Assembly: GCA_963842155.1 (NCBI GenBank)
Contig: CAWJFP010000037.1
Location: 1-37,168, forward strand
Direction of reading: 5' to 3'
Length of the DNA stretch: 37,168 bases
Source of the DNA: an uncultured Pseudomonadota bacterium
GTDB lineage: Bacteria > Pseudomonadota > Alphaproteobacteria > JACZXZ01
The notes under the pieces are model-generated. The model saw nothing but the letters and a program-made list of their open reading frames with translations. It ran no database searches and was not told where the DNA came from. This document shows, one piece after another, positions 10,817-30,416 of this stretch (position 1 is its first letter; every line of letters starts with the position of its first letter). The position numbers were made by a program, and so were the translations under genes.

Positions 10817-12080
10817 CTAGTCGTAGACCTTCTTGCACACCGGCACTTCGCGCCCGGGCAGGCCGATTCTGTCGAAGACCGCCTTGGAAAAGCCAAGCCT
10901 CTCGTTCACGTCGGGCACGACCTTGACGACCTTGGTGACGAGATTGCCGTCCTTGTCCTTGACAACTTCGGTGACGAAAACCGTGCCGATCGCTTGGCGA
11001 TTCTCATCGAGCTTGATCTGTCCGTTCGGCGCGTCGAGCACGAGCGACGCCAGCGCTGCACGGTATTTCTTCTGGCCGTCGCTGAGATCGCCGTTGACCT
11101 TGTCGAGCGCCAGCAGCGCGGCGGTCGTCTCGTCGTAATAATTGACGGCGCAAAACGATGGGCTAGTGAAGCGCTTCTCCGGCGGCCAGGCGTCCTGGTA
11201 CGCCTTCACGAACGCCTGCCAACGCGGATCGTCCCAGGTATCGGCGAAGTGGGCTGCGGAGGCGACGCCGATCAGCGTCTCTTTCGCCTTGCCCTTCGAC
11301 GACAGTATGGTCTGGTCGATCATGATCGAGCCGCCGATGAGCTTGGCATTGCCGCCGGCCTGCTGGTACTGGTTGAGGAAGTTCACGGCATCGGCGCCGC
11401 CGAGGCCGAGATAGATGGCATCGACGTCATCCGGCAGCGACGCGATGGTGGAGGCGAAGTCCTTGGTGCCGAGCGGCACCCACAGGCGCTTGGTGATCTC
11501 GCCGCCGAGCGGGCAATAATCGAGCGCGAGGCCGAACACCTGCGTGTAGGTGAACGCATAGTCCTCGGCGAGCGTCGCGATCTTCTTGTAGTGCTTGACG
11601 TTGTAGATGTACTCGCCCAGCCCCTTATGGATCTGGGCGCCGTCGAGGTTGAAGCGGAAGAAATTCGGCGCCGGATCGACATAGGTCGTCTCCAGCGCGG
11701 CGGAGCAGCCGTTGAGGAACGTGACCTGCGGCTGGGTCTTCGCATAATCATGTATCGCGATGCCTTCCGCGCCCGACAGCGGGGCGATGAGGATATCGAC
11801 CTTGTCCTGCTCGACCAGCTTCTTGGCGGCGCGCAGCGCCGAATCCGGAGTCGTGTCCGATGAGCCTCTGAAGATCTCGAGGTCCTTGCCGCCCGCCTTG
11901 TTGTGATGCTGCATCAGGGCGAGGTCGAAGCCGCGCTGGCCGTCCTCGCCGAGACTGGTGTAGGTACCTTCAAGCGTCGAGAAGAAGCCGATTTTGATCT
12001 TGTCGGCAGCGTTGGCCGATCCGATGCCGACGAGCGCGGCCAACGCGGCCGCGACTACCAATTCCAGTACCCTTACGCAT
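10817..12080 (-). CDS. ABC transporter substrate-binding protein, branched-chain amino acid (LivK/LivJ, PBP type I) family; signal-peptide region carries an apparent +1 frameshift
   Basis: The 414-aa ORF has LIV-binding-protein architecture (KIGFFSTLEGTYTSLG..., ...AIYLGLGGADAVNFLNQYQQAGG...). The in-frame start is only TTG at 12061, giving a truncated, uncharged signal peptide. ATG at 12080 with an AGGAGGG Shine-Dalgarno lies one frame off. Removing one G from aaGGGt restores MRKVLELVVAAALAALVGIGSANA|ADKIKIG, a textbook signal peptide. Confidence 0.75.
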
Positions 12081-12404
12081 GGGTGGTTCCCTCCTGTGTC
12101 CGAGCGCCGTTAGACGGTGTCGTTTGCCGACCGAATGCGTTTGCGTGTTTTCGGGATGTGACCGTCGCCCCGTGCCCAGCCGACTATTAATCATCGTAGC
12201 AGTGGGCGCCCCGGGGCCACAAGCCCGACCACGGTCGAAGCGCATCGCGCCGCCGTGTCTGGCAGTCTGATTCTTGGACCCGCGCGGGGTCGATCGCCAT
12301 GGTTGGCCACCCGCGGCCACAGCAAGGCACCCACTTGTCAACGACGCCCCGCCAGCGTTTAATCCGGCAAACAAAACAATAACCTGCGCGTTGGGAGGCA
12401 ACTT

Positions 12405-13232
12405 ATGAGTACGGCTTTGGCGGTCTGTCATGGGTCGTTCGGCCGTATGGCAGTCTATCGGCTGGACAAACCGATGCGCACCCACGCCCATCGCGAGGGC
12501 CATTTGACCTTTCAGCTCGGCGGCCCGCCGGCGGTCGTGACCATTTCGGACGTTCCCCATTTGGTTGATGAAGCTGCGGGCGTCGCGATCAACCCTTGGC
12601 AACCGCATTCCTTTCAGCCTTGTTCGGAGGATAAACCCTCGGTTTTTCTGGTCGCCTACATCTGTGATCGCTGGCTCGACCGCGATCACGACGGCCGTGG
12701 CAGCCTTCGTTTTGGTGCCAATGGGATTCGAGTCGGCACGACCATTCGCTCGATCTGCGCCAGTCTCGCGCACACCCTGGTGACGAACGCGAGTTATCGA
12801 CTGGTGAATCGCTATTTGAATCAGCTCCTTGACGCGAGTTTCGACGCATCCTGGAAGAGTGGCGAGCGAGCCAACTTGGCGCCGCTGCCGCGCGCGTCGG
12901 TCGACTTCCGCGTTCGCAAATCGCTGCGCATTTTGGACGAGGGCATTACTGAGGGCATCGAACTCGACGCGGTGGCGCGTGATGCCGGCCTGTCGCGCCC
13001 GCATTTCTTCAAGCTGTTCCGCGAAACCACTGGCGTGACGCCCGCGCTCTATGCCAACACGATACGCGTCGAGCGGGCACTTGATCGGCTCGTGAGCTCG
13101 CGAACCTCGATCACCGACATCAGCTACGAACTCGGCTTTTGCTCACAGAGCCATTTCACCCATTTCTTTTCTGCACATGTCGGGATTGCGCCCATGCTTT
13201 ACCGGACCGTCGCGCGGGTCGTCAGCGAATAG
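12405..13232 (+). CDS. AraC-family transcriptional regulator
   Basis: The C-terminal dual helix-turn-helix has typical AraC signatures (...LDAVARDAGLSRPHFFKLFRETTGVTPALYANTIRVERALDRL...ITDISYELGFCSQSHFTHFFSAHVGIAPMLYR). It is transcribed divergently from the SBP gene and lies upstream of the permease operon. Confidence 0.85.
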   Translation: MSTALAVCHGSFGRMAVYRLDKPMRTHAHREGHLTFQLGGPPAVVTISDVPHLVDEAAGVAINPWQPHSFQPCSEDKPSVFLVAYICDRWLDRDHDGRGSLRFGANGIRVGTTIRSICASLAHTLVTNASYRLVNRYLNQLLDASFDASWKSGERANLAPLPRASVDFRVRKSLRILDEGITEGIELDAVARDAGLSRPHFFKLFRETTGVTPALYANTIRVERALDRLVSSRTSITDISYELGFCSQSHFTHFFSAHVGIAPMLYRTVARVVSE

Positions 13233-13314
13233 CTAACAGCGCGAAAATCAGACTAACAAGCATGTCTCGGCGCCCTCGCTCGGGTAGTTTTCGGCAAAAG
13301 TCGGAGGGAGGTAG

Positions 13315-14382
13315 GTGGCCACGACTTTTGGCGATGACGGCGGAGTGCAGGTGTCGGCGCGCGGCGATGCGCTTGGCCGCTGGGTCGGGCGTCACCCCGT
13401 CGCCGCACTTATCATTGCCGTTGCGATCATTGTTGTGCTCTGGCTCGTCCTGGCACCGTGGCCGGCGGGATTCGAGGACGTGTTCGGGAAGAAGCGCCTC
13501 TTTATCAACGCGCTCTTCAACGGCATCACGCTCGGGGGCTTGTATTTTCTCGTCGCCACCGGCTTCACGCTGATCTTCGGCCTCATGCGCAACGTCAACC
13601 TCGCGCATGGCTCGCTCTACCTGTTCGGCGGTTATATGGGCTACGAGGCCGGCCAGTGGACCGGCTCGTGGCTCTTTAGCTACGTCGTTGCATTTGCTTG
13701 TTGCGCCATAATCGGCGTCGCCATGCAGGTCCTTATCTTTCGCCGGATGGAGGGGCAGGACCTGCGCCAGACGCTGGTCACGCTCGGCCTCTCGATCATC
13801 TTCTCCGACCTCATGGTCTGGGTCTGGGGCGGGGACGCGGTCCAGATCGATACGCCAAACTATTTGTCAGGCCCGGTCCCGACCCCCATCGTTGTTGCCG
13901 TCAAATCAAGCGGCGAGGCGGTCTTTCTTCAATATCCGCGCGTGAGACTTGTCATTTTCGCCGCGGCGGTCCTCATCGGCGTAGGGATGTGGCTCGCTCT
14001 CCATCGCACGCGGATCGGCGTGATGATCCGCGCCGGCGTCGACGATCGCGACATGCTGTCGGTCCTCGGATACCGGGTTCAGCTGCTCTTCGTCCTCGTA
14101 TTCGCGTTCGGCGCCGGGCTCGCGGGAATGGCGGGCATCGTCGGCGGGACCTTTACATCGATCTCGCTCGGCGAAGATTCGCATTTCCTGCTGGCGTCGC
14201 TGCAGGTGGTCATCGTCGGCGGCATGGGGTCGATACCGGGCGCGGCGCTCGGGGCCCTCATCATTGGCTGCTCCGAACAATTCGGCCAAGTCTACTTCCA
14301 GAACTACGCAATCGTCTCGACCTTCCTGATCATGGTCATCGTTCTCGCCATTCGTCCGCAGGGGCTGTTGGGAAAACGCTGA
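13315..14382 (+). CDS. Branched-chain amino acid ABC transporter permease (LivH family)
   Basis: GTG start with a GGAGGGAGG Shine-Dalgarno. Multiple TM helices and the conserved LivH signature ...GITLGGLYFLVATGFTLIFGLMRNVNLAHG... Confidence 0.8.
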   Translation: MATTFGDDGGVQVSARGDALGRWVGRHPVAALIIAVAIIVVLWLVLAPWPAGFEDVFGKKRLFINALFNGITLGGLYFLVATGFTLIFGLMRNVNLAHGSLYLFGGYMGYEAGQWTGSWLFSYVVAFACCAIIGVAMQVLIFRRMEGQDLRQTLVTLGLSIIFSDLMVWVWGGDAVQIDTPNYLSGPVPTPIVVAVKSSGEAVFLQYPRVRLVIFAAAVLIGVGMWLALHRTRIGVMIRAGVDDRDMLSVLGYRVQLLFVLVFAFGAGLAGMAGIVGGTFTSISLGEDSHFLLASLQVVIVGGMGSIPGAALGALIIGCSEQFGQVYFQNYAIVSTFLIMVIVLAIRPQGLLGKR

Positions 14383-15456
14383 ATGGCACTGGCGCAGACC
14401 ACGGAATCCGGCCCCGTCGGCTTTGGCAGCGCGCAGCGCAGCTTAGCGCCGCGCTGGGCGTCCCAGCTCTCGCCGATCCTGCTGCTCGGCCTTCTCCTGG
14501 TGCTTCTCCCGGTGGTTGCGAGCGATTTCGTGCTCGACCAGATCGTCGGCTGGGCCTTGGTCCTCGGCATGATCGCGCTGTCGCTGATGTTCCTCGCCGG
14601 CTATGGCGGCATGGTCAGCTTGGTGCAGATGACCGTCGCAGGCGTCGCCGGATACATGATCACCGTGCTCGGAGCGAGTTCACATCCCTCGATCAGCCTG
14701 TTCTGGCCGTGGTGGGTGGCGGCGCCGGTGGCGATCGTGATCGCCGTCGCCTTCGGGACGCTCGCCGGCGCGCTCTCCGCGCGCACCGAGGGCATCTATA
14801 CGATCATGATCACGCTGGCGATCGCCGCCGCTTTCTTCTACCTGACCCTTCAGAACTACTCGATTTTTAACGGTTTCAACGGGTTCACGACGATTCCGGC
14901 GCCGCTAGTTCCTTCGGCGTCAATTGGAAAGCGCCGATCCCGCTCTATTACCTGATTCTGTTTTTCGCCGCGCTCAGCTACGCCGTTGTCGTCGTACGTC
15001 TCCCGCGCGCCGTTCGGCCTCGCTCTGCAAGGCGTGCGCGACAACCCGCGCCGCATGGCGGCGATCGGCTACAACGTCACCGCGCACCGCATCGCGGCGT
15101 ACGCCTTCGCGGCGCTCATCGCGGCGATCGGCGGCATCCTGATGGTGTGGCTCAACAACCAGATCTCTCCCGGCACGGCCGGCATCGAGGCGACGATCGA
15201 CCTTCTCGTCATCGCGGTCGTCGGCGGGCTCGGCCATCCGATCGGCGCCTTTGTCGGCGCGATCATCTACGTCATCCTGCGCACGTTCGCGCTTGACGCG
15301 CTTATCGCGGTCGGACTCGACGGCCGCCGCTTCCAGACCATCATCGGGCTCGGCTTTCTCGTCGTCGTGCTTTTTTCGCCCGATGGAGTGATCGGCCTTT
15401 GGCGGCGGTGGTCGGCGTGGCGCGTCCGCACCTCTGGCGGGAGGAACGGCCGGTGA
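14383..15456 (+). CDS. Branched-chain amino acid ABC transporter permease (LivM family), interrupted by a compensating -1/+1 frameshift pair about 85 bp apart
   Basis: ORFs 14383..14955 and 14986..15456 are in the same frame (both coordinates = 1 mod 3). The 28 codons between them read as genuine hydrophobic LivM sequence (SFGVNWKAPIPLYYLILFFAALSYAVVV) only in the -1 frame. A missing T at about 14910 (gtt-cc) and an extra G at about 14994 (gtcgtcGtac) explain this. In the main frame the connecting segment gives PSASIGKRRSRSIT* with a stop. Confidence 0.7.
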
Positions 15457-16235
15457 GCTCGATCGCCGAACGGATGGCTGCGGCCGGCACCGGCAACGCG
15501 ATCGAATTGCGCGGTGTGAGCCGCTTTTTCGGCGCGCTCGCGGCCTTGACCGACATCACGCTCGGCGTGCGACCCGGAGAGCGACGCGCCGTGCTCGGAT
15601 CGAACGGCGCGGGCAAGACGACGCTGCTCAATTGCGTGACCGGCGATTTTCCACCGACGTCGGGAACCGTGCGATTCTTCGGCGAGGACGTCACGACGCT
15701 GCCGCCGCACGAGCGCATTCGCCGCGGGCTCCGTCGCACCTACCAGATTTCGCTGCTGTTCCAGCGCCTCTCGGTGCGCGACAACGTCTATCTCGCCTGC
15801 CGCGGCGTCTCGCGCGGCCGCTTCTCCTTCATCCGCACGCGCGCGAGTGACGCGCTCATGCAGTCGGTCGCGGACCTCATCTCGCTGGTCCATCTCGAAT
15901 CGGTGACCGATCGTCTGGTCGGGGAGCTGGCGCACGGCCAGCAGCGCCAGCTCGAAATCGCGCTGGCGCTTGCCGGCGCGCCGCGCTTCATCCTTTTCGA
16001 CGAGCCGGCGGCGGGCCTTTCGCCAAACGAACGGGCCGATCTGGTCGCGATCCTCACCGCACTTCCCGCCCATATCGGCTACATCATCATCGAGCATGAC
16101 ATGGACGTCGCGCTGCGGGTCGTCGAGAGCGTCACGATGATGCACAACGGACGCATCTTCAAGGAAGGTTCGCCGCGCGAGATCGAGGCGGATCCCGAGG
16201 TGCAGCAATTGTATTTGGGTGGCGGCCATGCCTGA
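15453..16235 (+). CDS. ABC transporter ATP-binding protein (LivG family)
   Basis: Walker [10 protein letters not shown], signature [15 protein letters not shown] and Walker B FILFDEP; ends ...[12 protein letters not shown]. The GTG start overlaps the LivM stop (GTGA) and has a GGGAGGA Shine-Dalgarno. The internal ATG at 15474 is also possible. Confidence 0.8.
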
Positions 16236-18444
16236 GCGTCGTCCCCCCAACCTGTTGGAGATCAATGGGCTCAACGTCTTCTATGGCCGCAGCCACGCAC
16301 TTCAGGGCGTGGATTTAAAGCTCGAGCACGGCGTGCTTTCGCTGGTGGGACGCAACGGGATGGGAAAGACGACGCTGTGCAATGCGATCGTCGGCCTGAT
16401 CCCGGTCGCCAGCGGCTCGATCCGTTTCATGGGAGAGGAGCTCGTCGGCCGCACGCCAGCCGAGATCGCGCGGCTGGGCCTCGGCTACGTGCCGCAGGGC
16501 CGACGGCTGTGGCCTTCGCTCACGGTCGACGAGCATTTGCGGCTCGCCGCCGGCAATGGCCGGTCGCAGTGGACCATCGCACGCATCTACGAAACATTCC
16601 CGCGGCTGGCGGAACGGCGCACCAATCGCGGTAACCAGCTCTCCGGCGGCGAGCAGCAGATGCTCGCCATTTCGCGCGCGCTCCTTCTCAATCCGCGCCT
16701 GCTCATCATGGACGAGCCGACCGAGGGACTTGCTCCGATCATCGTCGAGCAAGTCGAAGAGATCGTGCTCGGCCTCGGCGAGCAGGGCGACATCGGAGTT
16801 GTCGTTGTCGAGCAGAACATCGGGGTCGCAACCGCAATCGCCGAGAAAGTCGCGATCATGATCAACGGACGGATCAACCGGATCATGGAAGCAGCGCGTC
16901 TGGAGGCGGACCGCGAACTGCAACAGAGATTGCTTGGCGTCGGCGAGCAGGGCGAGGCGGAACCGCCCGTAGAGCCTGGCGAGGCGCCGACCGCGGAAGG
17001 CGGGCGCCGACCGGCGAAGGCGCGCGGGCCGGTCCGCGTCTACGTTTCAAACCCGACGATGCCGACGCGCTGGTCACAGCCGGTCCCCGCCACTCAGATT
17101 GAAACCGCAGCACGCACGCATACAGTTGCGCCCGAGCCCGCAACGTCGGGCGCTGCGCCCGCTGTCGAGCTGCGGCCGATCCATCGCGGCGGCGCGGCGC
17201 CGGTGATCGTCGCAGGAACGCTCGACACCAAAGGCGCTGAACTGCGCTTCATTCGCGACCAGATCGCCGCCGCCGGGGTGCGCGTAATTCTGGTCGATCT
17301 TTCCACCTCTGGCGAGCCGTCGCCCGCCGACGTGCCGCCGCACCATGTCGCGACATATTTCCGCGGCGGGCCAAACGCGGTCTTCACCGGCGAGCGGGGC
17401 GCCGCGATCACAGCGATGGCGGAGGCGTTCGAGGCGTGGATCCGGCGGCAGGAACCGGTCGGCGGTCTCATTTCGGCGGGCGGATCAGGCGGTAGTTCGC
17501 TGGTCGCGCCGGCGATGCGGGCGCTGCCGATCGGCGTGCCCAAGGTCCTCATCTCGTCGGTCGCCTCGGGCAATGTCGCGCCTTATGTCGGTCCGTCGGA
17601 TATCATGATGCTCTACTCCGTGACCGACGTCGCCGGCCTCAATTCAGTGACGCGCCAGGTTCTCGGCAACGGGGCCGCGGCTATGGTCGGCATGGTGAAG
17701 GCGCGCGCCGCCAGCGTCGAGCGCGATCGGGTGCCTGCGCGGCGCGGCGGCGGTAAGCCGGCGATCGGCCTCACCATGTTCGGGGTGACGACGCCCTGCG
17801 TCGACGCGGTGGTCGACGCGCTCGAAGAGGACTTCGAGTGTCTCGTTTTCCACGCGACGGGCATCGGCGGGCAATCCATGGAGAAGCTCGTCGATTCCGG
17901 CGTCCTCGCGGGAGTGATCGACATTACAACAACCGAGGTCTGCGATCTTCTGTGCGGCGGGGTGTTTCCGGCCACCGAGGATCGGTTCGGAGCGATCGTG
18001 CGCACCAGAGTCCCTTATGTCGGTTCATGCGGGGCGCTCGACATGGTGAACTTCGGGTCCATGGACAGCGTCCCCGAGCGCTATCGCGGCCGCAACCTCC
18101 ACATCCACAATCCCACCGTGACGCTGATGCGCACGACGCCCGAGGAGAACGTGCGGATCGGACGCTGGATCGGAGAGCGGCTCAACTTGATGGACGGCCC
18201 GGTGCGCTTTTTCCTGCCGGAGGGCGGCGTCTCGGCGCTTGACGCGCCGGGTCGGCCGTTTTCGGATCCGATCGCCGACGAAGAGCTGTTCAGATCGCTC
18301 GAAGCAACCGTTCGACAAACCGCCTCGCGCCGCCTCATCCGGCTGCAGGCGCATATCAACGACCCGCGCTTCTCGGCAGAAATCGTCGCCGAATTTCGTC
18401 GGTTGTTCGGTGGCCGGCTCGCCCGCCGGCGGGCAAAGGGGTAG
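16219..18444 (+). CDS. Continuous 741-aa ORF: LivF-like ABC ATPase (aa 1-240), PAE-rich low-complexity linker (about 90 aa), and UPF0261 / Tm-1-like domain (aa ~320-741)
   Basis: N-terminus: Walker [10 protein letters not shown], signature [15 protein letters not shown], Walker B LLIMDEP; the LivF body ends around ...[10 protein letters not shown]. There is no stop after that point. The ORF continues ...[21 protein letters not shown]...[15 protein letters not shown] and then [35 protein letters not shown]...[32 protein letters not shown]...[11 protein letters not shown]...FHATGIGG, which is typical of the UPF0261 family. The start is GTG 16219 or ATG 16228, overlapping the LivG stop. Confidence 0.6.
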
Positions 18445-18448
18445 CCGC

Positions 18449-19283
18449 ATGCCGCGCATCCCGCGCTCCGACATTCTCGCGCGGCTCCACGCGATGAAAG
18501 CGCGGGGCGAACCGATCATCGGCGCGGGCGCCGGGACGGGCCTCTCGGCGAAGGGCGAGGAGGAGGGCGGCGCCGATCTTATTGTCATCTACAATTCGGG
18601 GCGGTACCGCATGGCCGGCCGGGGGTCGCTCGCCGGCATGATGCCATATGGCGACGCCAACGGCGTCGTGCTCGAAATGGCCCGCGAGGTGCTGCCCGTC
18701 GTCACCCGCACGCCGATCCTCGCCGGGGTGTGCGGCACCGACCCCTTCCGCCAAATGGATCACTTTTTGGATGAAGTCGCACAGCTGGGCTTCAGCGGTG
18801 TGCAGAATTTCCCGACCGTCGGGCTCATCGACGGCCGCTTTCGGGCGGGGCTCGAGGAGACGGGCATGGGCTATGCCCGCGAAGTCGAGATGATCGCCAA
18901 GGCGCGCGCACGCGACCTTCTGACCACGCCCTACGTGTTCGACCCCCCAGAAGCCGCCGCGATGGCGCGCGCGGGCGCCGACGTCCTGGTCTGCCACTTC
19001 GGCCTGACCGTCGGCGGCTCGATCGGGGCCGCGACGTCGACCCGGCTGGAGAATTGTCCGACGTTGACCGACGCGATGGCCGAGGCGGCGCTCGCGGTGA
19101 ACCGCGACGTTTTTATCCTCGTTCACGGCGGGCCGCATCGCCGAGCCGGCCGACGCCGAGTATGTCCTGGCGCGGGCTCGCCACTGCCACGGCTTCTATG
19201 GCGCTTCGTCGATGGAGCGTCTGCCGGTCGAGCGCGCGCTATGTGCCCAGGTTGCAAAATTCAAAGCGATCAAGAAAGCTTAG
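18449..19283 (+). CDS. PEP-hydrolase-like TIM-barrel protein (PF09370-type; canonical partner of UPF0261, fused to it in plant Tm-1), with an apparent +1 frameshift near the C-terminus
   Basis: [85 protein letters not shown]... matches the family. After ...FILVHGGP the conserved tail [48 protein letters not shown] (stop 19281-19283) lies in the +1 frame. An extra C at about 19136 (ccgCatc) explains the shift. Confidence 0.7.
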
Positions 19284-19339
19284 TGGAGTGAAGAACAGGC
19301 CCGCGTCGGACCAACGGTCGGCGGGCGGGAGGAAGTAAG

Positions 19340-22300
19340 ATGTCCGTCGCCATTCTCGGTAGCCTGATCATCTGGCTGATCGTCGCGGTCATCGTCATCG
19401 CGATCGTCGTCTATTTCGTCAACTGGCTCTACCACCGTTCCTCGAAGGAAGTCTCCTTCGTGCGCACCGGCCTGTTCGGCGAAAAGGTGGTGATCAACAG
19501 CGGGGCCTTCGTTCTGCCGTTCATTCACGAGGTCACCCCGGTCAACATGAACGTCCTGCGCATGCAGGTCGTCCGCAACCGCGATGACGCGCTCATCACC
19601 AAGGACCGGATGCGCGTCGACATCGAGTCGGAGTTTTACGTCCGGGTGCCGCCGACGCGGGAGGCGGTGACGATCGCCGCCGCAACGCTCGGCCGGCGCA
19701 CGACCAACGTCGCCGAGCTCGACACGCTGTTATCCGGCAAGTTCATCTCCGCCCTGCGCTCGGTCGCCTCCGAGATGACGATGGTGGAGATGCACGAGCG
19801 GCGCGGCGAATACGTCGCCCGGGTCAAGGAATCGGCGCTGGAAAGCCTCAAGCAGAACGGCCTCGAACTCGAATCGGTGGCGATCACTGATCTCGACCAG
19901 ACCGACCTTGAATTTTTCAATCCGTCGAACCGCTTCGACGCCGAAGGTCTGACCAAGCTGATCGAGGACATCGAAGCGCGGCGCAAGCTGCGCAACGACA
20001 TCGAACAGGAATCGATGATCCTCATTCGCAGCCGCAATCTCGAAGCCGAGAAACAGGCGCTGGACATTGATCGCGAAAGCGAGACCGCACGCCTCAATCA
20101 GGAACGTGACATCGAGGTGAGACGCGCGGTTCAGCGCGCCGAACTCGCCCGCGAGCGCTCCTTGCGCGACACCGAGGCGGAGCAGGCCCAAATCTCCGGC
20201 CGCGAGGAGGTCGAGAAGACACGCATCGCCCATGAGCGCACCCTCGCCGAGGCGCGCATCACTTCCGAGCGCGAAATTCGCGAGCGCGAGATCGAGCGTG
20301 GTCGCCAGATCGACGAGGCGGAGATCGCTGCGCGCGAACGCGTCGAGCGCGCGCGCATCGCCCAGGAACGGGTCGTCACCGAGGCGCGGATCGCCCGCGA
20401 GGAAGACGACCAGCGACGTGAAATCGAACGCACGCGCAACGTCGAGCAGGCCGAAATTGTCGCGCGCGAGGAGACCGAGAAAGCGCGCATCGCGCAGGAG
20501 GTCGCAGTGACCGCGGCGCGCATCGCCCAGGAGCGAGGAGAATAGGCGCCTCGAGATCGAGCGCGCGCGCAACTTGGAGCAGGCCGAGATCGCGGCTCGC
20601 GAGACCACCGAGCGCGCGCGTATCGCGCAGGAGCGCGTGGTCACTGACGAACGCATCGCGCTCGAAGAAGAAATCCGGCGCCGCGAGATCTCGCGCAACC
20701 GCGCGATCGACGAGGAAGAGATCGCCGCTGCGAAGGCCACAGAAGCCGCCCGCATCGCTCGCGAAAAGGCGCTCGCCGCCGAGCGCATCGCCTCCGAGCT
20801 CGCCACCCGGACGCTCGAAATCGAGCGGACGCGGTCGCTGGAGGAAACCGATATCGCGGCGCGAGAAGTCACGGCCGCGGCGCGCATCCAGCAGGAGGAG
20901 CGCATCCGAGCGCTCGACATCGCCCGCAACCGCTCGATCGAGGAGGCCGAGATCGCGGCGCGCGAGGCGGTCGAGGCGTCGCGTATCGCCCAGGAGAAGA
21001 AGATCGCCGTCGAGCGGATCGCCGCCGAGGAGCTGACGAGGAGCCGCGAGATCGGGCGAATCAAGACCATCGAGGCCGCCGAAATCGCCGCCCGCGAGTC
21101 GACCGAGACCGCGCGCATCGCCCTCGACAAGAAGATCGCCGCGGACCGTATCGGCGCCGACCAGGAGACCCGCGGGCTGGAGATCGCCCGCAACGAAGCG
21201 ATCGAGTCCGCCGAGATCGCCTCGCGCCAGGTCGTCGAATCGGTCCGCATTCTGGAGGACCGCAAGATCGCCGCGGAGAAAATATCGCGCGATGAAGAGG
21301 TGCGCTCGCTGGAGATTGCCCGCAATCGCGCGGTCGATACGGCCGAGATCGCGGCGCGCGAGGCGGTCGAGGCGACGCGTATCGCCCAGGAGAAGAGGAT
21401 CGCCGCGGAGCGCATCGCGGCCGAACAGGAGACCAAATCGCGCGACATTGCGCGCGAGCAGGCGATCGAAGACGCCGAGATCAGGCGGCGCGAGGCCGTC
21501 GAGGCCGCGCGCATCGCGGTCGAACTTGCGCTGGAGCAGGAGAGGATCGAGTCGTCGAAGACGCGCGATGTACTCGACGTCGAGCGCCGGAAAGTCTTGG
21601 AGATCGCCGAGCAGGATCGCTCGATCGAAGTCGCAGCCAAGCTTGCCGAGCGTGCTGACGCCGATCGTCGGGTGAAGGAAGCCGATATCGTCGCGGCGCA
21701 GCACGTGGGGCGCACAGACGTTGTGCGCGAGCAGACCCTCGATCTGGCCCGGCTCGAACGCCGAAGGGCGGTGGAGCAATTCGAGGTCGCCCGCTCACAG
21801 TCACTGCAGGAAGCCGAGATCGCGGCCCGCGAGGAGGTCGAGCGTGCGCGCATCGCCTCGGAACGTGGCATCGACGAGGCGCGCATCCTGCGCGACCGGG
21901 AACTGCGTCAGCTCGAAATCGGCCGCGAAACGGCGGTCGAGACCGCCCGCATGGAGAGCACCATCGAAATCCACCGCAAGTCGCGCGAACAGTCGGCGGC
22001 ACAGGCCGACGCCGAGACGGCCCGCGCCCAAGCGGTCGAGGCCGAGGAGCGGGTCAAGACGGTACGCGAGAGCGAGGCGGCGCGCCGCCGGCGCGCGGTC
22101 GAAGTGCTCATCGCCGAGAAGGAGGCCGACGAAGTGCGGATCGCGGCGGCTGCCGAACAGGTGCGCTCCGCGGTCGAGGCCGACGCGCAGCGGCTCCTCA
22201 ACGAAGCCGAGAACGTTCTCACCGACGCGGCCCGCGCGTCGCTGTTCCGCCGCAGGCTGCTCGAGCGTATCGAAGGCATCGTCCGCGAGAGCGTCAAGCC

Positions 22301-22595
22301 GATGGAGAAGATCGAGGGCATCCGCATCCTGCAGGTCGACGGCCTCAACGGCGGGCGCGGCGGCTCGGGTGGGCGCAGCGCCACCGATGAGGTCATCGAT
22401 TCGGCGCTGCGTTACCGCGTGCAGGCGCCGATGATCGACCAGATCCTCGCCGAGATCGGCATCGAGGGCGGCAGCCTCTCGCGAATGCCGGGCCTCATTC
22501 GCGAGGCGCGCGATATGCAGGGCATCCGCAAGGAGGCGGCGCCGAAGAAGCCGCCCGAAGAGGGCGGAGGCGGATCATCGTCGGGGCAGACCTGA
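19340..22595 (+). CDS. Giant flotillin / SPFH (band-7) family protein (~1085 aa) with an expanded coiled-coil repeat region; one apparent +1 frameshift at about 20535-20545
   Basis: N-terminal TM helix (ILGSLIIWLIVAVIVIAIVVYFV), then an SPFH domain (EVSFVRTGLFGEKVVINSGAFVLPFIHEVTPVNMNVLRMQVV...). A long E/A/R/I-rich repeat region follows, then a flotillin-type C-terminus (...IRILQVDGLNGGRGGSGG...). ORFs 19340..20545 and 20574..22595 join if one G is removed from cgagGag: ...ARIAQER(E)ENRRLEIERARNLEQAEIAARE... continues the repeat pattern without a break. Confidence 0.7.
20040..21650. repeat. About twelve tandem 132-bp (44-codon) coding repeats inside the flotillin-like gene
   Basis: Example: gccgagatcgcggcgcgcgaggcggtcgaggcg(t/a)cgcgtatcgcccaggagaag(a/g)a(g)gatcgccg appears at about 20948 and again at about 21345 (3 x 132 bp) with 2-3 mismatches. 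The protein-level unit is RxLEIxRxRxxExAEIAAREAVEAxRIAQEKxIAAERIAAEQET. Confidence 0.8.
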
Positions 22596-22625
22596 CGGCG
22601 GTCCGAGGAACAAGGAAGGAGCGAA

Positions 22626-23063
22626 ATGCCCCGCGTCTATGTCTCGAGCGTCATCAACGGTCGCTCCGACCGCGTCTGGGCGCGGGTGCGCGATTTCAAT
22701 GGCTTGCCCTCCTGGCATCCGGGGATCGCGGAGAGTCGGATCGAGAACGGCGAACCGGCGGACAAGGTCGGCTGCGTGCGCGACTTCCGCCTGCGCAACG
22801 GCGACCGAATCCGGGAAAAGCTTCTCGGTCTGTCGGACTTCGATCTGTTCTGCACCTATTCGATCCTCGAATCCCCCATGGGCGTCGAGAATTACGTGGC
22901 GACGCTCCGTCTCACCCCGATCACCGACGGAGAGCGGACCTTCGTCGAGTGGACGGCGGAATTCGACTGCCCGCCGGAGCGCGAGGCCGAGCTCGTCTCG
23001 ACGATCGGAGGCGGCGTTTTCCAGGGCGGTTTCGACGCCCTGAAACGCCAGTTCGCAGGATGA
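22626..23063 (+). CDS. SRPBCC-superfamily protein (polyketide cyclase / START / CoxG-like fold)
   Basis: 145 aa; begins MPRVYVSSVINGRSDRVWARVRDFNGLPSWHPGIAES... with the typical SRPBCC opening (x-I-x-A-P-x-D-x-VW); a GGAGCG Shine-Dalgarno precedes the ATG. Confidence 0.6.
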   Translation: MPRVYVSSVINGRSDRVWARVRDFNGLPSWHPGIAESRIENGEPADKVGCVRDFRLRNGDRIREKLLGLSDFDLFCTYSILESPMGVENYVATLRLTPITDGERTFVEWTAEFDCPPEREAELVSTIGGGVFQGGFDALKRQFAG

Positions 23064-23084
23064 GCCCATGACTAGGATGAGGTC

Positions 23085-23546
23085 ATGATCCGGATTGTCC
23101 GCTCGACGATCATCGACGCGCCGACTGACCGCGTCTGGGCGTTCCTGCGCGATTTCAACGGGCACGAACGCTGGCATCCGGCCGTCGCCAAGAGCGCGAT
23201 CGAGCGCGGCCAGAGCGCCGACAAACTGGGTTGTGTGCGGCGCTTCTTCCTGCGCGACGGCTCGGAGCTCCGCGAGCGTCTGCTGACACTCTCCGACCTC
23301 GAGCAGAGCTTTACCTATTGCCTGCTCGAGACGCCGATTCCGCTATTCAATTATACTGCCCATGTCCGCCTCGCGCCGGTCACCGATGGCGACCGGACGT
23401 TCTGGGAGTGGCGGTGTTCGTTCTCGACGAGGAAAGGCGAGGAGGCTGAAATGACGCGCCTCGTCGGCGAGGACATCTATGACGCGGGATTCGCCGCCGT
23501 TCGTGCTCATCTCGCCGCATCCTCGGGATTGGAGGGCCGCGCGTGA
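23085..23546 (+). CDS. SRPBCC-superfamily protein, tandem paralog of the preceding gene
   Basis: MIRIVRSTIIDAPTDRVWAFLRDFNGHERWHPAVAKSAIE... is about 45% identical to the upstream paralog. Its stop overlaps the GTG start of the FAD subunit (GTGA). Confidence 0.6.
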   Translation: MIRIVRSTIIDAPTDRVWAFLRDFNGHERWHPAVAKSAIERGQSADKLGCVRRFFLRDGSELRERLLTLSDLEQSFTYCLLETPIPLFNYTAHVRLAPVTDGDRTFWEWRCSFSTRKGEEAEMTRLVGEDIYDAGFAAVRAHLAASSGLEGRA

Positions 23547-24355
23547 GCATCACGGTAAAGACCTTCGCCCGATTAGCCGACGCGGCCGCGGCGCTCGCGA
23601 GCGAACGCGGGGCGCGCTTTCTCGGCGGCGGAACGCTGCTCATGCGCGCGGTCAATGAGGCCGACCCGGCGATCGAGACGATCGTGCGCTCGAGCGATCC
23701 CACCCTCCTCAACATCGCAGTCTCGTCGGGCCGCGTGGAGCTCGGCGGCGGCGCGACCATGGCCGCGATCCTCGCCGAGCGCGAACTCGCGTTTCTGCAT
23801 CCGGTGGCGCGCGTGGTCGGCAGCCCGGCGGTGCGCGAGGCGGCGACCGTCGGCGGCAATCTGTTTGCGACAAAAGGCGACTTCGCGACGGCGCTGCTCG
23901 CGCTCGACGCGACCGTGATGCTCGCTGGCGGCGTCGGTCAACGCGAGCTGCCGCTCGAAGAGTTTCTCGGTCGTCGCGAGCGGGGGGCCGCGCTCGTATC
24001 GAGCGTCGCGTTCAAGCGGCCGGCGGCCGACGCGTTCCGGTTTGCCAAGGTCACCCGCGTCCACCCCAAAGGCATGTCGGTCCTCTCGATCGCTGCCCAA
24101 TTGCCCCTTGTCAGCGGCCGGATAACCGGCGCGAGGATTGCCTATGGCGGGATGGATCGTACGCCAGTGAGGGCCAAGGCGGCTGAACGGGCACTCGAGA
24201 GCCGCGGGCTCGACGCGGCCGGCATCGCTCCGGCTCTCGCCGTAGCCGCCGACGGCACCTCACCCGCCGACGACGCGATCGCCAGCGCCTGGTGGCGGCG
24301 GGAAATCCTCCTTGTCCATCTGCGCCGGCTGCTGCTCGGCGTCGGCCAAGCGTGA
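23543..24355 (+). CDS. Molybdopterin-dehydrogenase FAD-binding (medium) subunit, CoxM/XdhB-like
   Basis: RFLGGGTLLM and ...REAATVGGNLF... FAD-binding motifs; 270 aa; GTG start coupled to the preceding gene. Confidence 0.75.
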   Translation: MSITVKTFARLADAAAALASERGARFLGGGTLLMRAVNEADPAIETIVRSSDPTLLNIAVSSGRVELGGGATMAAILAERELAFLHPVARVVGSPAVREAATVGGNLFATKGDFATALLALDATVMLAGGVGQRELPLEEFLGRRERGAALVSSVAFKRPAADAFRFAKVTRVHPKGMSVLSIAAQLPLVSGRITGARIAYGGMDRTPVRAKAAERALESRGLDAAGIAPALAVAADGTSPADDAIASAWWRREILLVHLRRLLLGVGQA

Positions 24356-24362
24356 GGCGCCG

Positions 24363-24842
24363 ATGAAGACGCCGATTCAATTTCGTCTCAATGATGAGGA
24401 TGTCGCCGCCTTCGCCGAGAGCGGCGCCAACCTGCTCGACGTGCTGCGCGAATCGGTCGGCGACCTGTCGGTGAAGGGCGGCTGCTGGCAGGGCACCTGC
24501 GGCGCGTGCACGGTGCTTGTCGACGGCGCGCCGCGCCTTGCCTGCGTAACACTGGCGGAAAGCTGCGCCGAGCGGTCGGTCGAGACCGTCGCGGGGCTGC
24601 GGCGCGGCCCCGACCTCCACCCCCTGCAAAGTGCCTTCATGGAGCGCTTCGCGGCCCAGTGCGGCTATTGCACGCCGGGCATGCTGATGGCAGCCAAGGC
24701 GCTCCTCGACCGCAATCCCAATCCCTCCCGGGAGGATGTCGTCGACGCCATTTCCGGCAATATCTGCCGCTGTACTGGCTATGAACCCATCATCCAGGCG
24801 GTCCTCGAAGCCGCCCGCGGCGACAGCCGTCGCCGCGCCTGA
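24363..24842 (+). CDS. (2Fe-2S)-binding small subunit, CoxS/XdhC-like
   Basis: MKTPIQFRLNDEDV... with plant-type ferredoxin cysteines CWQGTCGACTV and a second cluster motif QCGYCTPGMLM...GNICRCTGYEPI. GAGG Shine-Dalgarno 7 nt upstream. Confidence 0.85.
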   Translation: MKTPIQFRLNDEDVAAFAESGANLLDVLRESVGDLSVKGGCWQGTCGACTVLVDGAPRLACVTLAESCAERSVETVAGLRRGPDLHPLQSAFMERFAAQCGYCTPGMLMAAKALLDRNPNPSREDVVDAISGNICRCTGYEPIIQAVLEAARGDSRRRA

Positions 24843-24853
24843 AGGACACCGCC

Positions 24854-26475
24854 ATGCTCGAATTCCGCAAGGACATTTTCGCCGACGAACGCGACGACAA
24901 CCTGAAGGAGGTCGGCCACCCGACGCAGCGTCAGGACATGCTCGGGCACGTCACCGGGACCTCGGCCTATTACGATGATCACCGCTTCGCCAACCTGCTC
25001 CATCTGAAGGTTCTGCGCAGTCCGCATGCCCATGCGCGTATTCGCTCGATCGACGACTCGGTCGCGGCGCGCGCGCCGGGCGTCAAGCGGATCATTCGGG
25101 CGGCCGACGTTCCGGTCAATCTCAATACGCTCTTGAGCCTCATCCAATTCGGCAAGGACGACGAGCCTTCGCTCGCGACCGACGTCGTGCGCTACAAGGG
25201 CGAGCCGATCATCGGAGTAGTCGCGACCAGCGAGCGCGCGGCGCTTCAGGCCCTCGCCATGGTGCGCGTCTCCTACGATCCGCTGCCGGCAGTCTTCGAT
25301 GTAGAGGAGGCGCTGAAGCCGGGAGCCCCGTCGGTCAACGCAACCTATCCGAAGAACACGTTCGAATATTACGGCAAATACGACCACCAGAAGCTTCGTT
25401 TCGGCGACGCCGATACGGCCTTCGCGCAGGCCGACGTCGTGCTCGAAGAGCGCTATCAGATGTCGCCGATCGAGCATGCCCCGATCGAGACCAACGGCTC
25501 AATCGCCGTGCCGGACACGAACGGCCGATTTGTCGTTTACACCTCGACCCAGGCGCTCTTCTTCTCTTTGGACACCGCCGCCAAGATCAATGCGATGCCC
25601 TCGAACCAGTTGCATTTCATCGGCGGCACTGTCGGCGGCGGCTTTGGCGGCAAGGTCGACACCCTCACCGAGCCCCTCGTCATCCTCGCGGCGCGCCTGA
25701 CGGGCGCACCCGTGCGCTACCGGCTGAGCCGGCACGAGGAAATGCAGTTCGGCTCGCCCCGCGGCGCTGAGCGAATCTATGTCAAAGACGGCGTCATGCG
25801 GGATGGGCGGATCATCGCCCGCAAGGTGAGAGCTTATTTCGACAGCGGGGCCTACACGCGGCTTTCGAGCTACGCGGCAGTCAAATGCGCGGCCCATATT
25901 CCCGGACCCTATACGATCCCCAACGTCCACGCGGACATCTTCTGCGTTTTCACCAACCGAACACCGGCGACCGCAATGCGCGGGTTCGGCGTCACGGCGC
26001 TCGACTTCGCGCTTGAATGCCAAATGGACAAGCTCGCCGTTGCGGTCGAGATGGACCCTCTCGAGTTCCGCATTCTCAATGCTTACCGCGACGGCGACAT
26101 GAAAGCGCACCGGCGCGAGGCCAAGAACTGCGCGCTCATCGAATGCGCGCAGGTCGCCGCTGAAAAAGCCAACTGGCCGATCCGCGAGGAATTCCGCAGG
26201 ATGTCGTCGCGGGTCGGCGGGGGGCAGCGCGGACCGGCGGCGGCGCGACCCGGACCGGCGCACAGGCTCCTGTCGCCGCCCCCGCGCCCGCACAAACCGG
26301 GGCAGGCTCGCCCCAGCGTGTCCCGTACGATCGCGCCGCTGCGGCCGCGCCGGCACATAACGTGCCACCGCCGACGCCCGCGCGAAGCGCACCGCCACCC
26401 CCTGCCGCGCCGCCTGCCGGATCGACGCATGGGGCGCCGCGCTTTTCCTCAGTTTTTGGAACACGGAGGCGCTGA
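24854..26475 (+). CDS. Molybdopterin-binding subunit, N-terminal half (xanthine dehydrogenase / aldehyde oxidase family), with a probable Pro/Ala-rich C-terminal tail reached through a -1 shift in a G6 homopolymer
   Basis: Conserved to about aa 450 (...HFIGGTVGGGFGGKVDT..., ...TPATAMRGFGVTALDFALECQMDKLA...). After the G-run at 26219-26224 the annotated frame becomes Arg-rich nonsense and overruns the next start. The -1 frame instead gives AQAPVAAPAPAQTGAGSPQRVPYDRAAAAAPAHNVPPPTPARSAPPPPAAPPAGS... and stops at TGA 26473-26475, 3 nt before the next ATG, which has a GGAGG Shine-Dalgarno. Confidence 0.65.
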
Positions 26476-26478
26476 TCA

Positions 26479-27501
26479 ATGGCCAAGCATCGCGGACGCG
26501 GGGTGGCGACCATCAATTATCCGATCGGCATGAATCTCGGCGGCGATCCGAGCCAAGCGCTGGTTCATTCCAATCCGAGCGGAAAATTCACCGTCGCTCT
26601 TTCCTCGATCGACCTCGGACAGGGAATGAAATCGGTGACGCGGCAGATCTGCGCGGAGACGCTAGGCGTGCCGGTCGAGGACGTCTATGTCGACACCGCC
26701 GATTCGGACACCGGCCCGCATTGCATGGGCTCGTTCGCCTCGCGCGGAACGCACCGCGTCGGCAACGCGGTGATGGTAGCGGCGCGCGAGGCGCGCGCGG
26801 TCATGATGGAGGCGGCGGCGGAGGAGCTTGAAGTCGACCCAGGCGACCTCGAGACCGACGGGCGCGGCTCCATCCGGGTGAAGGGCGCGCCCCACCGGTC
26901 GATCTCCGTGCGCGACGTCGCTATCGCGGCCCAGTTCCGTCAGGGACGTACGATCTCCGGGCGCGGCATTTTCCTGGTGCCGTTGTCGGACGTCGATCCG
27001 GAAACCGGCGAGATGTCGCCGGCAACCTGCTACGCCCACGCCTGTCTCATTGTCGAAGTCGAGGTCGATGACGAGACCGGCGACGTCACCGTGCTGAAGA
27101 TGACAAGCGCCTACGAGGTTGGGCGCGCGATCAACCCCAAGCTCGTCGAACAGCAACTCGTCGGCGGCTCATGGATGGGCATGAGTCACGCGCTCTATGA
27201 GACTACGGAACCGTATTACCCGGATACCCGTGAGGGACCGCGGGACTTCAACGAATACCTGATGCCCGGCCCCGGCGACATCTGTCCGCACGACATTGTG
27301 GTGCTCGAACGGCCCGCCCCTGACGGCCCCTTCGGCGCGAAGGGCCTGGGCGAGATGTGCGCCAATCCCGTCCTGCCGGCGGTCGCCAACGCGATTTTCG
27401 CGGCGGTTGGTGTGCGTATCAACGAACTGCCAATCACGCCGGAGAAAGTTCTCAGGGCGCTGAAAGCGCGGGGCGGCGCGGCCCCGGCGCGCGCGCGGTG
27501 A
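26479..27501 (+). CDS. Molybdopterin-binding subunit, C-terminal half (separate ORF; split large subunit)
   Basis: MAKHRGRGVATINYPIGMNLGGDP... corresponds to the start of the C-terminal Mo-cofactor domain of single-chain XDH-family large subunits. It has its own GGAGG Shine-Dalgarno and ATG, and a conserved ...GPFGAKGLGEMCANPVLPAVANAI... tail. Confidence 0.75.
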   Translation: MAKHRGRGVATINYPIGMNLGGDPSQALVHSNPSGKFTVALSSIDLGQGMKSVTRQICAETLGVPVEDVYVDTADSDTGPHCMGSFASRGTHRVGNAVMVAAREARAVMMEAAAEELEVDPGDLETDGRGSIRVKGAPHRSISVRDVAIAAQFRQGRTISGRGIFLVPLSDVDPETGEMSPATCYAHACLIVEVEVDDETGDVTVLKMTSAYEVGRAINPKLVEQQLVGGSWMGMSHALYETTEPYYPDTREGPRDFNEYLMPGPGDICPHDIVVLERPAPDGPFGAKGLGEMCANPVLPAVANAIFAAVGVRINELPITPEKVLRALKARGGAAPARAR

Positions 27502-27507
27502 TCTGTC

Positions 27508-28389
27508 ATGGCGGTGCGCCGTACCATCGTCGGCATCGGCAGCCCGCGGGAGCTCGAGGAGGCGCTTCGCGCCGCCTACTACCTGGCCGACGAGGAGCTT
27601 TCGACCGCCGCCTATCTCGCGCTCGCCCTCGGCAAGCCGCTCTTGCTCGAAGGCGCGCCGGGCGTGGGCAAGACCGAAGCCGCCAAGGCGATTGCCGGCG
27701 TGCTCGGCCGCATCCTCCTCCGCCTGCAATGCTACGAGGGCATCGACGCGGCGGCGGCGCTCTACGAATGGAATTTTCCGCGCCAGATGCTCGCGCTGCG
27801 CCGGGAGGGCGCCGGCGAGGTCGACATCTATCGCGACGAGTTCCTTATCGAGCGGCCGATGCTCGCCTGCCTGCGGCGTCCCGAAGAAACAGTGCTGCTC
27901 ATCGACGAGATCGACCGCTCCGACCACGAGTTCGAGGCCTTCCTCCTCGAGTTTCTTTCCGACTTTCAGATTTCGATTCCCGAGCGAGGCACCATTCGCG
28001 CTTACGAGCGGCCGGTCGTGATCCTCACCTCCAATCGGACACGCGAATTGCATGAAGCATTGCGTCGCCGCTGCGTCTATCACTGGATCGATTATCCCGC
28101 GCCCGAGCGCGAAATGCGGATCATCATGATGCGCGCATCGGGTGTTGGCGAGCGGGCGGCGCGGGCCGTCGTCGCCGCAGTGGGACGATTGCGCCGCGAG
28201 CCGCTCGCCAAGCTCCCCGGGATCGCGGAGGCGGTCGAATGGGCGGAGGCCGCAACGCTCCTCAACGAACAGGGAACGCGGTGGCCGGAAGCCTTCCGGC
28301 GCTCGCTCGGCGTCGTCCTCAAGGACGAGGACGACTTCGTTCATGTCGCGCCGAAGATCGACGCCATTCTCGCGGAGGCGCAGGCATGA
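27508..28389 (+). CDS. MoxR-type AAA+ ATPase, CoxD-like maturation factor
   Basis: Walker A LLEGAPGVGKT, Walker B VLLIDEIDR, sensor ...ILTSNRTRELHEALRRRC...; it sits in the canonical position after the Mo subunit. Confidence 0.85.
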   Translation: MAVRRTIVGIGSPRELEEALRAAYYLADEELSTAAYLALALGKPLLLEGAPGVGKTEAAKAIAGVLGRILLRLQCYEGIDAAAALYEWNFPRQMLALRREGAGEVDIYRDEFLIERPMLACLRRPEETVLLIDEIDRSDHEFEAFLLEFLSDFQISIPERGTIRAYERPVVILTSNRTRELHEALRRRCVYHWIDYPAPEREMRIIMMRASGVGERAARAVVAAVGRLRREPLAKLPGIAEAVEWAEAATLLNEQGTRWPEAFRRSLGVVLKDEDDFVHVAPKIDAILAEAQA

Positions 28390-30383: not shown

Positions 30384-30416
30384 CTAGGGGTTTGGACCCC
30401 GAGCGGGGAGGAACGC

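Follow-up and report, generated by a model that had tools for sequence, protein, structure and literature searches.

An importer ATPase fused to a Tm-1-like UPF0261 domain is conserved within a flotillin-bearing gene cluster of bacteria

Why does the last ATPase gene of a solute importer operon run on, in frame, into a domain related to the tomato protein Tm-1? This question is raised by a 37,168-nt contig of an uncultured Pseudomonadota bacterium (CAWJFP010000037.1 of GCA_963842155.1; Alphaproteobacteria, JACZXZ01), which is referred to here as the window. An earlier note, made from the sequence alone, had described an ATP-binding cassette (ABC) ATPase of the LivF type that passes its usual end and continues into a UPF0261 (i.e., Tm-1-like) domain, and had cautioned that a stop codon might have been lost. 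We found that the fusion is real, old, and conserved in hundreds of bacterial species. The conserved unit is also larger than the segment originally delimited (16219-19283), with flotillin, SRPBCC proteins, and catabolic enzymes co-conserved.

The fusion occupies a single plus-strand open frame that extends from a GTG at 16219 or an ATG at 16228 to a TAG at 18442-18444. The ATG overlaps the stop codon of the preceding LivG-type gene (ATGCCTGA), and translation from it gives a product of 738 aa, as in the public gene calls (P0001). Both other frames contain stop codons over 16880-17260. Pfam searches, with positions counted on the 741-aa open reading frame (ORF) starting at GTG 16219, assigned aa 28-168 to ABC_tran (PF00005; 1.4e-28), aa 329-497 to the UPF0261 N-terminal domain, and aa 513-729 to UPF0261_C (E values in Table 1). 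The two UPF0261 profiles, PF06792 and PF23189, scored 199.9 and 301.9 bits, both passing the gathering score of 27, and the NCBIfam model NF002673 scored 586 bits for this half against a cut-off of 520. The C-terminal part is therefore a full UPF0261 domain, as first read from the translation, and a bona fide member of the UPF0261/Tm-1-like family. No NCBIfam model covers a LivF-UPF0261 fusion.

To place the gene among its relatives, a scan with one genome per species was used, which yielded at least 581 relatives, of which 80 species-level loci were kept and analyzed. All 80 carry a single ORF over both halves (56-91% identity; Alpha- and Gammaproteobacteria), and this ORF stays unbroken although the linker between the halves is poorly conserved. 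The loci include isolates of Bradyrhizobium, Bosea, Mesorhizobium, Azospirillum, Jannaschia, Roseisalinus, Fodinicurvata, Hwanghaeella, Kumtagia, and Aquibium, as well as gammaproteobacterial metagenome-assembled genomes (MAGs) and one contig binned as Terriglobia; plasmid records from Shinella, Yoonia, and Variovorax also carry the fusion. More than 120 protein clusters (90% identity) of 736-741 aa, with 86-100% identity and the same three domains, were found in independent NCBI, JGI, and ENA assemblies, and an exhaustive search of representative clusters recovered full-length fusions down to 39% identity. In a comparison with a 90%-identical locus (L063), the gap pairs within the fusion gene are all compensated. 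The warning about indels was justified for the neighboring genes, in which two uncompensated 1-nt insertions (19136 in the TIM-barrel gene and 20534 in the flotillin gene) and local indels garbling LivM (14909-14993) were detected relative to L063; these could be assembly errors or early pseudogenization. That an error-prone assembly merged ordinary LivF and UPF0261 genes, through an indel from sequencing or the loss of a stop codon, is nevertheless extremely improbable, despite these damaged neighbors, given the same uninterrupted ORF in 80 of 80 independent species-level genomes (isolates among them), the metagenomic clusters with the fused form, the L063 comparison, and a linker of about 85 aa with a conserved motif that is absent from truly split genes (see below). 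Nor is there any need to postulate that UPF0261 is a gene of its own with a start inside this frame, the frame being open and the linker conserved as coding in all loci; a separate UPF0261 start preceded by a Shine-Dalgarno sequence was seen only in Thermomicrobium roseum.

The architecture had been regarded as unfamiliar. Literature searches covering the fusion, its COG numbers and RefSeq product names, and clusters of flotillin, SRPBCC, and hydroxylase genes indeed returned nothing relevant beyond papers on MarK (a bacterial UPF0261 protein discussed below) and on the origin of Tm-1, but the fusion is not rare, occurring in hundreds of species, and JGI already tags it with both COG names. 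RefSeq and GenBank name the protein "ABC transporter permease" (e.g., NZ_CP151764.1 from Yoonia and CP063167.1 from Variovorax) despite its having no membrane domain; this naming is a systematic and misleading misannotation.

AlphaFold2 predicted two confidently folded domains (aa 1-236 and 322-730) joined by a linker with pLDDT values of <50, save for a short helix (aa 288-295) just after a P-T-R-W motif. The pTM was 0.49, so that no fixed interdomain orientation is predicted and contacts of the motif are not readable from the model. The length and sequence of the linker differ between loci. Beyond the low-complexity character described earlier, it bears a conserved PTRW/PNRW motif. P-x-R-W occurs in 80 of 81 loci (x is T or N in 78; otherwise D, Y, or one RTRW); PTRW is invariant in all 18 sequences of alignment A1 and is kept exactly in four of eight divergent fusions. 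As modeled, the long flexible tether has a short linear motif and carries a folded module that resembles an enzyme. Two folded domains separated by a disordered stretch are what one would expect if an enzyme were tethered, and not of an allosteric domain held rigidly.

Active-site motifs are preserved on both sides of this tether. Walker A (GRNGMGKTT), the signature sequence LSGGEQQ, and Walker B (DEPTEG) are invariant in all 81 main-family sequences, and the UPF0261 motifs GT.DTK, [GA]GSG[GA], FHATGxGG, [ST]TTE[VI], GALDMVN[FW], and HN[PA] are kept in all of them with only the substitutions indicated. Both halves thus look, apparently, catalytically competent in the main family, as judged from these sequences. 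The first UPF0261 motif (GTLDTKG; aa 330-336), whose D-T-K is conserved in all 81 sequences, has a Lys that aligns with K20 of Tm-1 and K16 of MarK (PMC12624787). MarK (Saro_1862) of Novosphingobium aromaticivorans is a UPF0261 ATP-dependent aromatic kinase that phosphorylates phenolic aromatics (PDB 9MPY); it was crystallized as a homodimer, the position of its E16K variant is the activating Lys site, the purified protein is active in vitro on its own, and its transcription unit, as described, contains only acvCDEF homologs (carboxylase/phosphatase) (PMC12624787). The earlier statement that these domains have no demonstrated function in bacteria is thus outdated. The closest solved structures to the UPF0261 half are Tm-1 (3e-92) and MarK 9MPY (1e-54; phmmer, aa 326-727). 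Of the substrate-pocket residues of MarK, counterparts of His219 and His304 are conserved, whereas that of His348, which binds the ketone of acetovanillone (PMC12624787), is Leu (GVSALD versus GFSSHD). No acvCDEF-type carboxylase/phosphatase genes were found among the conserved neighbors of the fusion loci. A MarK orthologue was therefore rejected as an identity for this half, which is closer to Tm-1 and lacks both His348 and the acvCDEF context. The closest stand-alone UPF0261 representative (P0139) lies on a 1.4-kb contig, where its upstream frame is open to the contig edge, and is thus uninformative on gene context.

The gene directly after the fusion had been taken for the TIM-barrel partner of UPF0261, and the PF09370 search bore this out (Table 1). 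Its ATG (18449) lies 4 nt after the fusion TAG and is preceded by AAGGGG. The match covers only positions 2-223 of the 267-position profile because of the 1-nt insertion at 19136, which leaves the C-terminal ~45 residues out of frame in the window. Of the 80 loci, 72 have the TIM gene immediately behind the fusion, 2 have a match only at another place in the locus, and 6 have none; it is also missing from 3 further divergent fusion loci. The partner is thus common but not obligate as had been proposed, the MarK unit also having only acvCDEF homologs. Four loci without a TIM gene directly downstream (L059, L071, L073, and L074, from Kumtagia, two Mesorhizobium, and a Rhizobiaceae MAG) have all the UPF0261 motifs, as do the two with the match elsewhere (L060 and L064, from Lichenihabitans and an unclassified alphaproteobacterial MAG), in which the TIM match adjoins a second fusion-family (cluster-1) gene on the opposite strand.

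Table 1. Fusion gene, its parts, and the conserved neighboring features of the window
Feature	Position (nt)	Strand	Evidence or remarks
Fusion gene, 738 aa	16228..18444	+	ABC ATPase, disordered tether, UPF0261 domain
ABC nucleotide-binding domain, aa 1-236	16228..16935	+	Motifs, AlphaFold2 fold, PDB 1JI0 1e-48
Linker, aa 237-321	16936..17190	+	Acidic, then Pro/Ala-rich; predicted disordered
P-T-R-W motif within linker	17062..17073	+	Sequence comparison across loci
UPF0261 N-terminal (ATP-binding) domain	17203..17709	+	PF06792, 4e-59; D-T-K = 17224-17232
UPF0261 C-terminal domain	17755..18405	+	PF23189, 2.5e-90
PF09370 TIM barrel ("PEP hydrolase-like"/TBST)	18449..19283	+	Pfam 1e-105, 353 bits; PDB 2P10 (Mll9387) 4e-91
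Substrate-binding protein (Peripla_BP_6), divergent	10817..12061	-	Pfam 3e-48
AraC-family regulator	12405..13232	+	HTH_18/HTH_AraC (Pfam)
LivH-type permease	13315..14382	+	BPD_transp_2, 7e-30
LivM-type permease, two ORFs (14383-14955, 14986-15456)	14383..15456	+	BPD_transp_2 profile positions 2-119 and 149-252
LivG/UrtD-type ATPase, partner nucleotide-binding domain	15399..16235	+	ABC_tran, BCA_ABC_TP_C
Long flotillin (SPFH + Flot), ~1070 aa once repaired	19340..22595	+	Band_7 3.5e-17 (5' ORF), Flot 8e-36 (3' ORF)
Two SRPBCC (Polyketide_cyc2) proteins, 22626-23063 and 23085-23546	22626..23546	+	5e-27 and 5e-20
Molybdenum hydroxylase module: FAD, 2Fe-2S, split large subunit, CoxD-like AAA, CoxE-like VWA	23543..29498	+	Pfam, NCBIfam

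Pfam matches of the window genes agree with the proposed LivH/LivM/LivG-type importer operon with a substrate-binding protein and an AraC regulator. The ATPase half of the fusion is a nucleotide-binding subunit of the HAAT (LIV/Urt) family in the LivF position, and the operon has the composition of a HAAT system (i.e., a pair of BPD_transp_2 permeases, a further ATPase of the LivG type, and a Peripla_BP_5/6 binding protein). Among NCBIfam models, the ATPase half scored 219 bits with UrtE (cut-off, 285.8) and 157.5 with LivF (cut-off, 441), and the best match of the LivG-type ATPase was UrtD at 204 bits, under the UrtD cut-off. The earlier label of a branched-chain-amino-acid-type importer thus stands at the level of the family, but the closest models are UrtE and UrtD and no equivalog cut-off is reached, so that branched-chain amino acids are not implied as the substrate; a branched-chain amino acid or urea transporter was rejected on these scores. 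LivH was found in 72 of 81 loci and a homolog of the binding-protein gene in 65, and LivM is intact (~356 aa) in other loci. The nearest structures to the binding protein are 4ZPJ, 4EVQ/4EVR, and 4EY3/4EYG/4EYK (E values of 1e-25 to 1e-28), of which the 4EVQ/4EVR and 4EY3/4EYG/4EYK entries are Rhodopseudomonas palustris binders of benzoate derivatives.

Clustering of the genes over the 81 loci revealed a conserved core in the order LivH-LivM-LivG-fusion-TIM-flotillin-SRPBCC. The flotillin gene, found in 77 loci, immediately follows either the TIM barrel or the fusion. It is split in the window by the insertion at 20534 and is one gene in related loci, with a median product length of 963 aa; the window flotillin is unusually long, has a highly repetitive, Glu/Ala/Arg-rich middle, and lacks the usual NfeD partner gene. 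SRPBCC proteins, in one or two copies, occur in 70 loci. Two versions of the cluster were distinguished. In type A, represented by window positions 13315-29498, the binding protein and AraC regulator lie upstream (the regulator in 44 of 81 loci, all of this type) and a molybdenum hydroxylase followed by CoxD/CoxE-like genes lies downstream. This hydroxylase module characterizes a type-A subset, with single genes recovered in 18 to 44 of the 81 loci and the module visible in about 45 of them in the gene-order table. Its large subunit is encoded by two overlapping genes (24854-26533 and 26479-27501, carrying the MoCoBD_1 and MoCoBD_2 parts, respectively), a split conserved in 36 to 44 loci, and is nearest to nicotinate dehydrogenase and 4-hydroxybenzoyl-CoA reductase in NCBIfam and PDB. 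The best PDB match of the first half is 3HRD_A (9e-61), the nicotinate dehydrogenase "large molybdopterin subunit"; because this chain has only 425 aa and is so labeled, the match suggests that the Eubacterium barkeri enzyme is split alike. In type B, the binding-protein gene lies between LivM and LivG, and the flanks encode a GntR-FCD regulator, an FAA hydrolase, an alpha/beta hydrolase, an amidohydrolase, and an SRPBCC-quinone-oxidoreductase fusion. Four type-B loci (L049, L056, L065, and L070; e.g., L065 2775-4508) encode a regulator with an N-terminal PF09370 domain (4e-56) and a Fis-type helix-turn-helix (HTH), indicating that the TIM-barrel fold also serves as a sensor domain within this system.

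A scan of 12000-31000 for promoters and terminators gave counts at chance level, uninformative on operon boundaries; the tight gene spacing and the lack of above-chance terminators make co-transcription likely. Separately, positions 10285-10445 hold an 81-bp tandem duplication (2.0 copies, 97% match) within a minus-strand ORF (8532-10490). The repeat encodes a doubled 27-aa Ser/Gly/Tyr/Pro-rich segment at the N terminus of an ORF for a thiamine pyrophosphate-dependent (acetolactate-synthase-like) enzyme, and this N-terminal extension may not be genuine coding sequence.

A split form of the same association was found on the megaplasmid of Thermomicrobium roseum DSM 5159 (TRD_RS09660-09630; L086, NC_011961.1, 4869-11836), with the order LivH-LivM-SBP-LivG-LivF-UPF0261-TIM (SBP, substrate-binding protein). 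Here, LivF is a 244-aa protein that ends in ...RYLGVSAWQAA and a stop codon, followed by 12 nt with a Shine-Dalgarno sequence (AGGGAGGG), a 412-aa Tm-1-like gene, and the TIM gene. The T. roseum proteins share ~52% identity with both halves of the window fusion. The gene order is shared with the fusion clusters, and FAA hydrolase and XDH-family genes lie nearby; the T. roseum cluster differs in that LivF and UPF0261 are separate genes and no linker, PTRW motif, or flotillin is present. The other neighbors in T. roseum are PEP/pyruvate-binding and PEP-utilizing (dikinase-type) genes, the latter of the same type as the AcvAB/HpeHI aromatic kinases. Linkage of the importer, UPF0261, and the TIM barrel without fusion is classic Rosetta-stone evidence for a shared function, and as judged from the sequences the association existed before the fusion.

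Some divergent fusions show what can be lost. In P0124, P0126, P0128, P0133, P0145, P0153, and P0161, the ABC motifs are all kept and D-T-K, FHATG, and HNP are lost, which gives the UPF0261 part the look of a pseudoenzyme. All three loci examined (L082/L083, L084, and L085, with P0128, P0145, and P0133) lack the TIM gene and keep the flotillin gene; the SRPBCC pair and the hydroxylase are kept in both divergent loci with long enough contigs. The UPF0261 catalytic motifs and the TIM gene were thus lost together in these loci, and the appended domain was retained.

What, then, might the fusion do? Our preferred answer, which we hold tentatively, is that a tethered ATP-dependent modifying enzyme, probably a MarK-like kinase, acts at the transporter to capture an aromatic or heteroaromatic acid that has been imported. 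The disordered tether would keep this enzyme, which modifies small molecules, where the importer opens into the cytoplasm; there it would act together with the TIM barrel, most likely as a kinase by analogy with MarK. Capture or activation would take place as the compound, probably an aromatic or N-heteroaromatic acid, enters (i.e., metabolic trapping or channeling), and the compound would then be passed to the co-encoded catabolic enzymes, here the nicotinate-dehydrogenase-like molybdenum hydroxylase. Flotillin and the SRPBCC proteins would probably organize the assembly at the membrane, and PTRW is a candidate docking site for one of these partners. The conserved active sites, the precedent of MarK, the tether, the split form, and the catabolic neighbors together favor such a tethered enzyme. 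A catabolic context pointing, if weakly, to aromatics is provided by the structural matches of the binding protein, the molybdenum hydroxylase, the catabolic genes of type B, and the PEP-utilizing genes of T. roseum; the substrate class is probably best given no more narrowly than an aromatic or N-heteroaromatic acid. The suggestion in the earlier note that the Tm-1-like module is linked to the transported substrate agrees with the conserved synteny and the split form of T. roseum.

Several observations weigh against this answer. The UPF0261 half is nearer to Tm-1 than to MarK by the values given above and has Leu in place of His348, and the similarities of the binding protein to solved structures are weak (E of ~1e-26). 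With MarK active alone and its unit holding only acvCDEF homologs, the MarK precedent does not account for PF09370. In addition, the domain is kept in lineages where its motifs are lost, so that catalysis is dispensable there and some non-catalytic role must also be needed. The tethered-enzyme proposal and the regulatory and scaffolding alternatives considered next are not mutually exclusive.

A less probable alternative is that UPF0261, with the TIM barrel as its ligand sensor, responds to the cytoplasmic level of ATP or of a metabolite by turning the ATPase of the transporter on or off, in the manner of trans-inhibition. Like the known regulatory domains of MalK, MetN, ModC, and OpuAA, the extra domain follows the nucleotide-binding domain on its C-terminal side; PF09370 is the N-terminal sensor of Fis-HTH regulators, including those inside type-B loci (c27); and the lineages with a motif-less UPF0261 still keep the domain. 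However, the enzyme-like motifs are strictly conserved throughout the main family, known regulatory domains of ABC ATPases are attached by short, rigid connections and not by a disordered tether of 85 residues, and the two parts are separate proteins in T. roseum. Beyond the linker, Pfam gives only UPF0261, with none of the TOBE, NIL/C2, CBS, or MalK regulatory-domain folds after the nucleotide-binding domain.

It is somewhat more doubtful that the tethered domain and PTRW are mainly physical, with catalysis secondary, so that UPF0261 dimers could pair transporters or the domain could dock the importer to flotillin, SRPBCC proteins, and the hydroxylase as a membrane metabolon. CoxG-type SRPBCC proteins recruit carbon monoxide dehydrogenase to the membrane, which is in keeping with such a scaffold or adaptor, as are the flotillin gene of 77 of 81 loci, which persists in lineages that have lost both the TIM barrel and the UPF0261 motifs, and the short linear motif conserved in an otherwise variable disordered linker. 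The homodimer seen in the MarK crystal (PMC12624787) would also suit it. On the other hand, conservation of the ATP-site residues would be needless for a pure scaffold, and T. roseum has the ABC-UPF0261-TIM association without a flotillin.

A bolder proposal, which we consider unlikely as it stands, would combine these elements into an ABC importer with group-translocation-like chemistry, in which a tethered UPF0261 kinase works with PF09370 to modify the substrate on its way out of the transporter and the unit, downstream hydroxylase included, is held on a flotillin platform through PTRW. If true, this would be a previously unrecognized kind of uptake machine, and the UPF0261/PF09370 pair, the source of plant Tm-1, would for the first time have a physiological function.

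The pair itself is widespread and co-evolving, being present in bacteria, archaea, fungi, and plants (as Tm-1), and the activity of MarK, published in 2025, is the sole biochemical activity reported for it so far. Because the pair is covalently tied here to an importer with its own binding protein and regulator, its substrate should be findable: the ligand of the binding protein is a candidate substrate or ligand of the pair. The motif-less lineages represent a natural experiment that parts a catalytic from a structural role. Few defined client systems of bacterial flotillins are known to us, and the fusion cluster has an unusual dedicated flotillin.

Among known systems, tomato Tm-1 and plant Tm-1-like proteins (PDB 3WRV-3WRY) are the closest solved relatives and share the UPF0261-PF09370 pairing, the co-evolution of which was documented in the 2016 paper on the origin of Tm-1 without the present architecture (PMC5028733). 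In plants, UPF0261 is fused to the TBST TIM barrel and its known role is to bind a viral replicase, whereas in the window its fusion partner is a transporter ATPase and the TIM barrel is a protein of its own. MarK shares with the window protein the two-domain UPF0261 fold family, the Lys of D-T-K, and the counterparts of His219 and His304, and both genes lie in catabolic operons of Alphaproteobacteria. They differ in that neither a transporter fusion nor a TIM-barrel gene is mentioned for the MarK unit and the window protein has both; conversely, the latter is without a His348 counterpart and without acvCDEF neighbors.

Importer ATPases with C-terminal accessory domains include MalK (regulatory domain), MetN (C2/NIL), ModC (TOBE), and OpuAA (CBS). 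What the fusion shares with these is an extra domain appended C-terminally to the nucleotide-binding domain in an importer that depends on a binding protein. Their domains are small, rigidly attached modules that bind ligands or proteins; the fusion, in contrast, carries a two-domain module of enzyme type, 400 residues in size, at the end of a disordered tether of 85 residues, and the partner of this module is encoded by a separate gene. Coupling of uptake to modification is known from group translocation by the phosphotransferase system (PTS), from nicotinamide-riboside uptake and phosphorylation by PnuC/NadR, and from vectorial acylation by FadL/FadD. These offer a working analogy, in that a modifying enzyme at the transporter traps the incoming substrate, as would be the case here if the coupling that we infer is correct. 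To our knowledge, in none of them is the enzyme covalently attached to an ABC importer, and the fusion would be the first ABC importer ATPase with an enzyme-type domain on a flexible tether. ABC ATPases with appended domains are thus known, and the UPF0261 fusion in a flotillin-bearing cluster is a real, widespread, and uncharacterized architecture among them.

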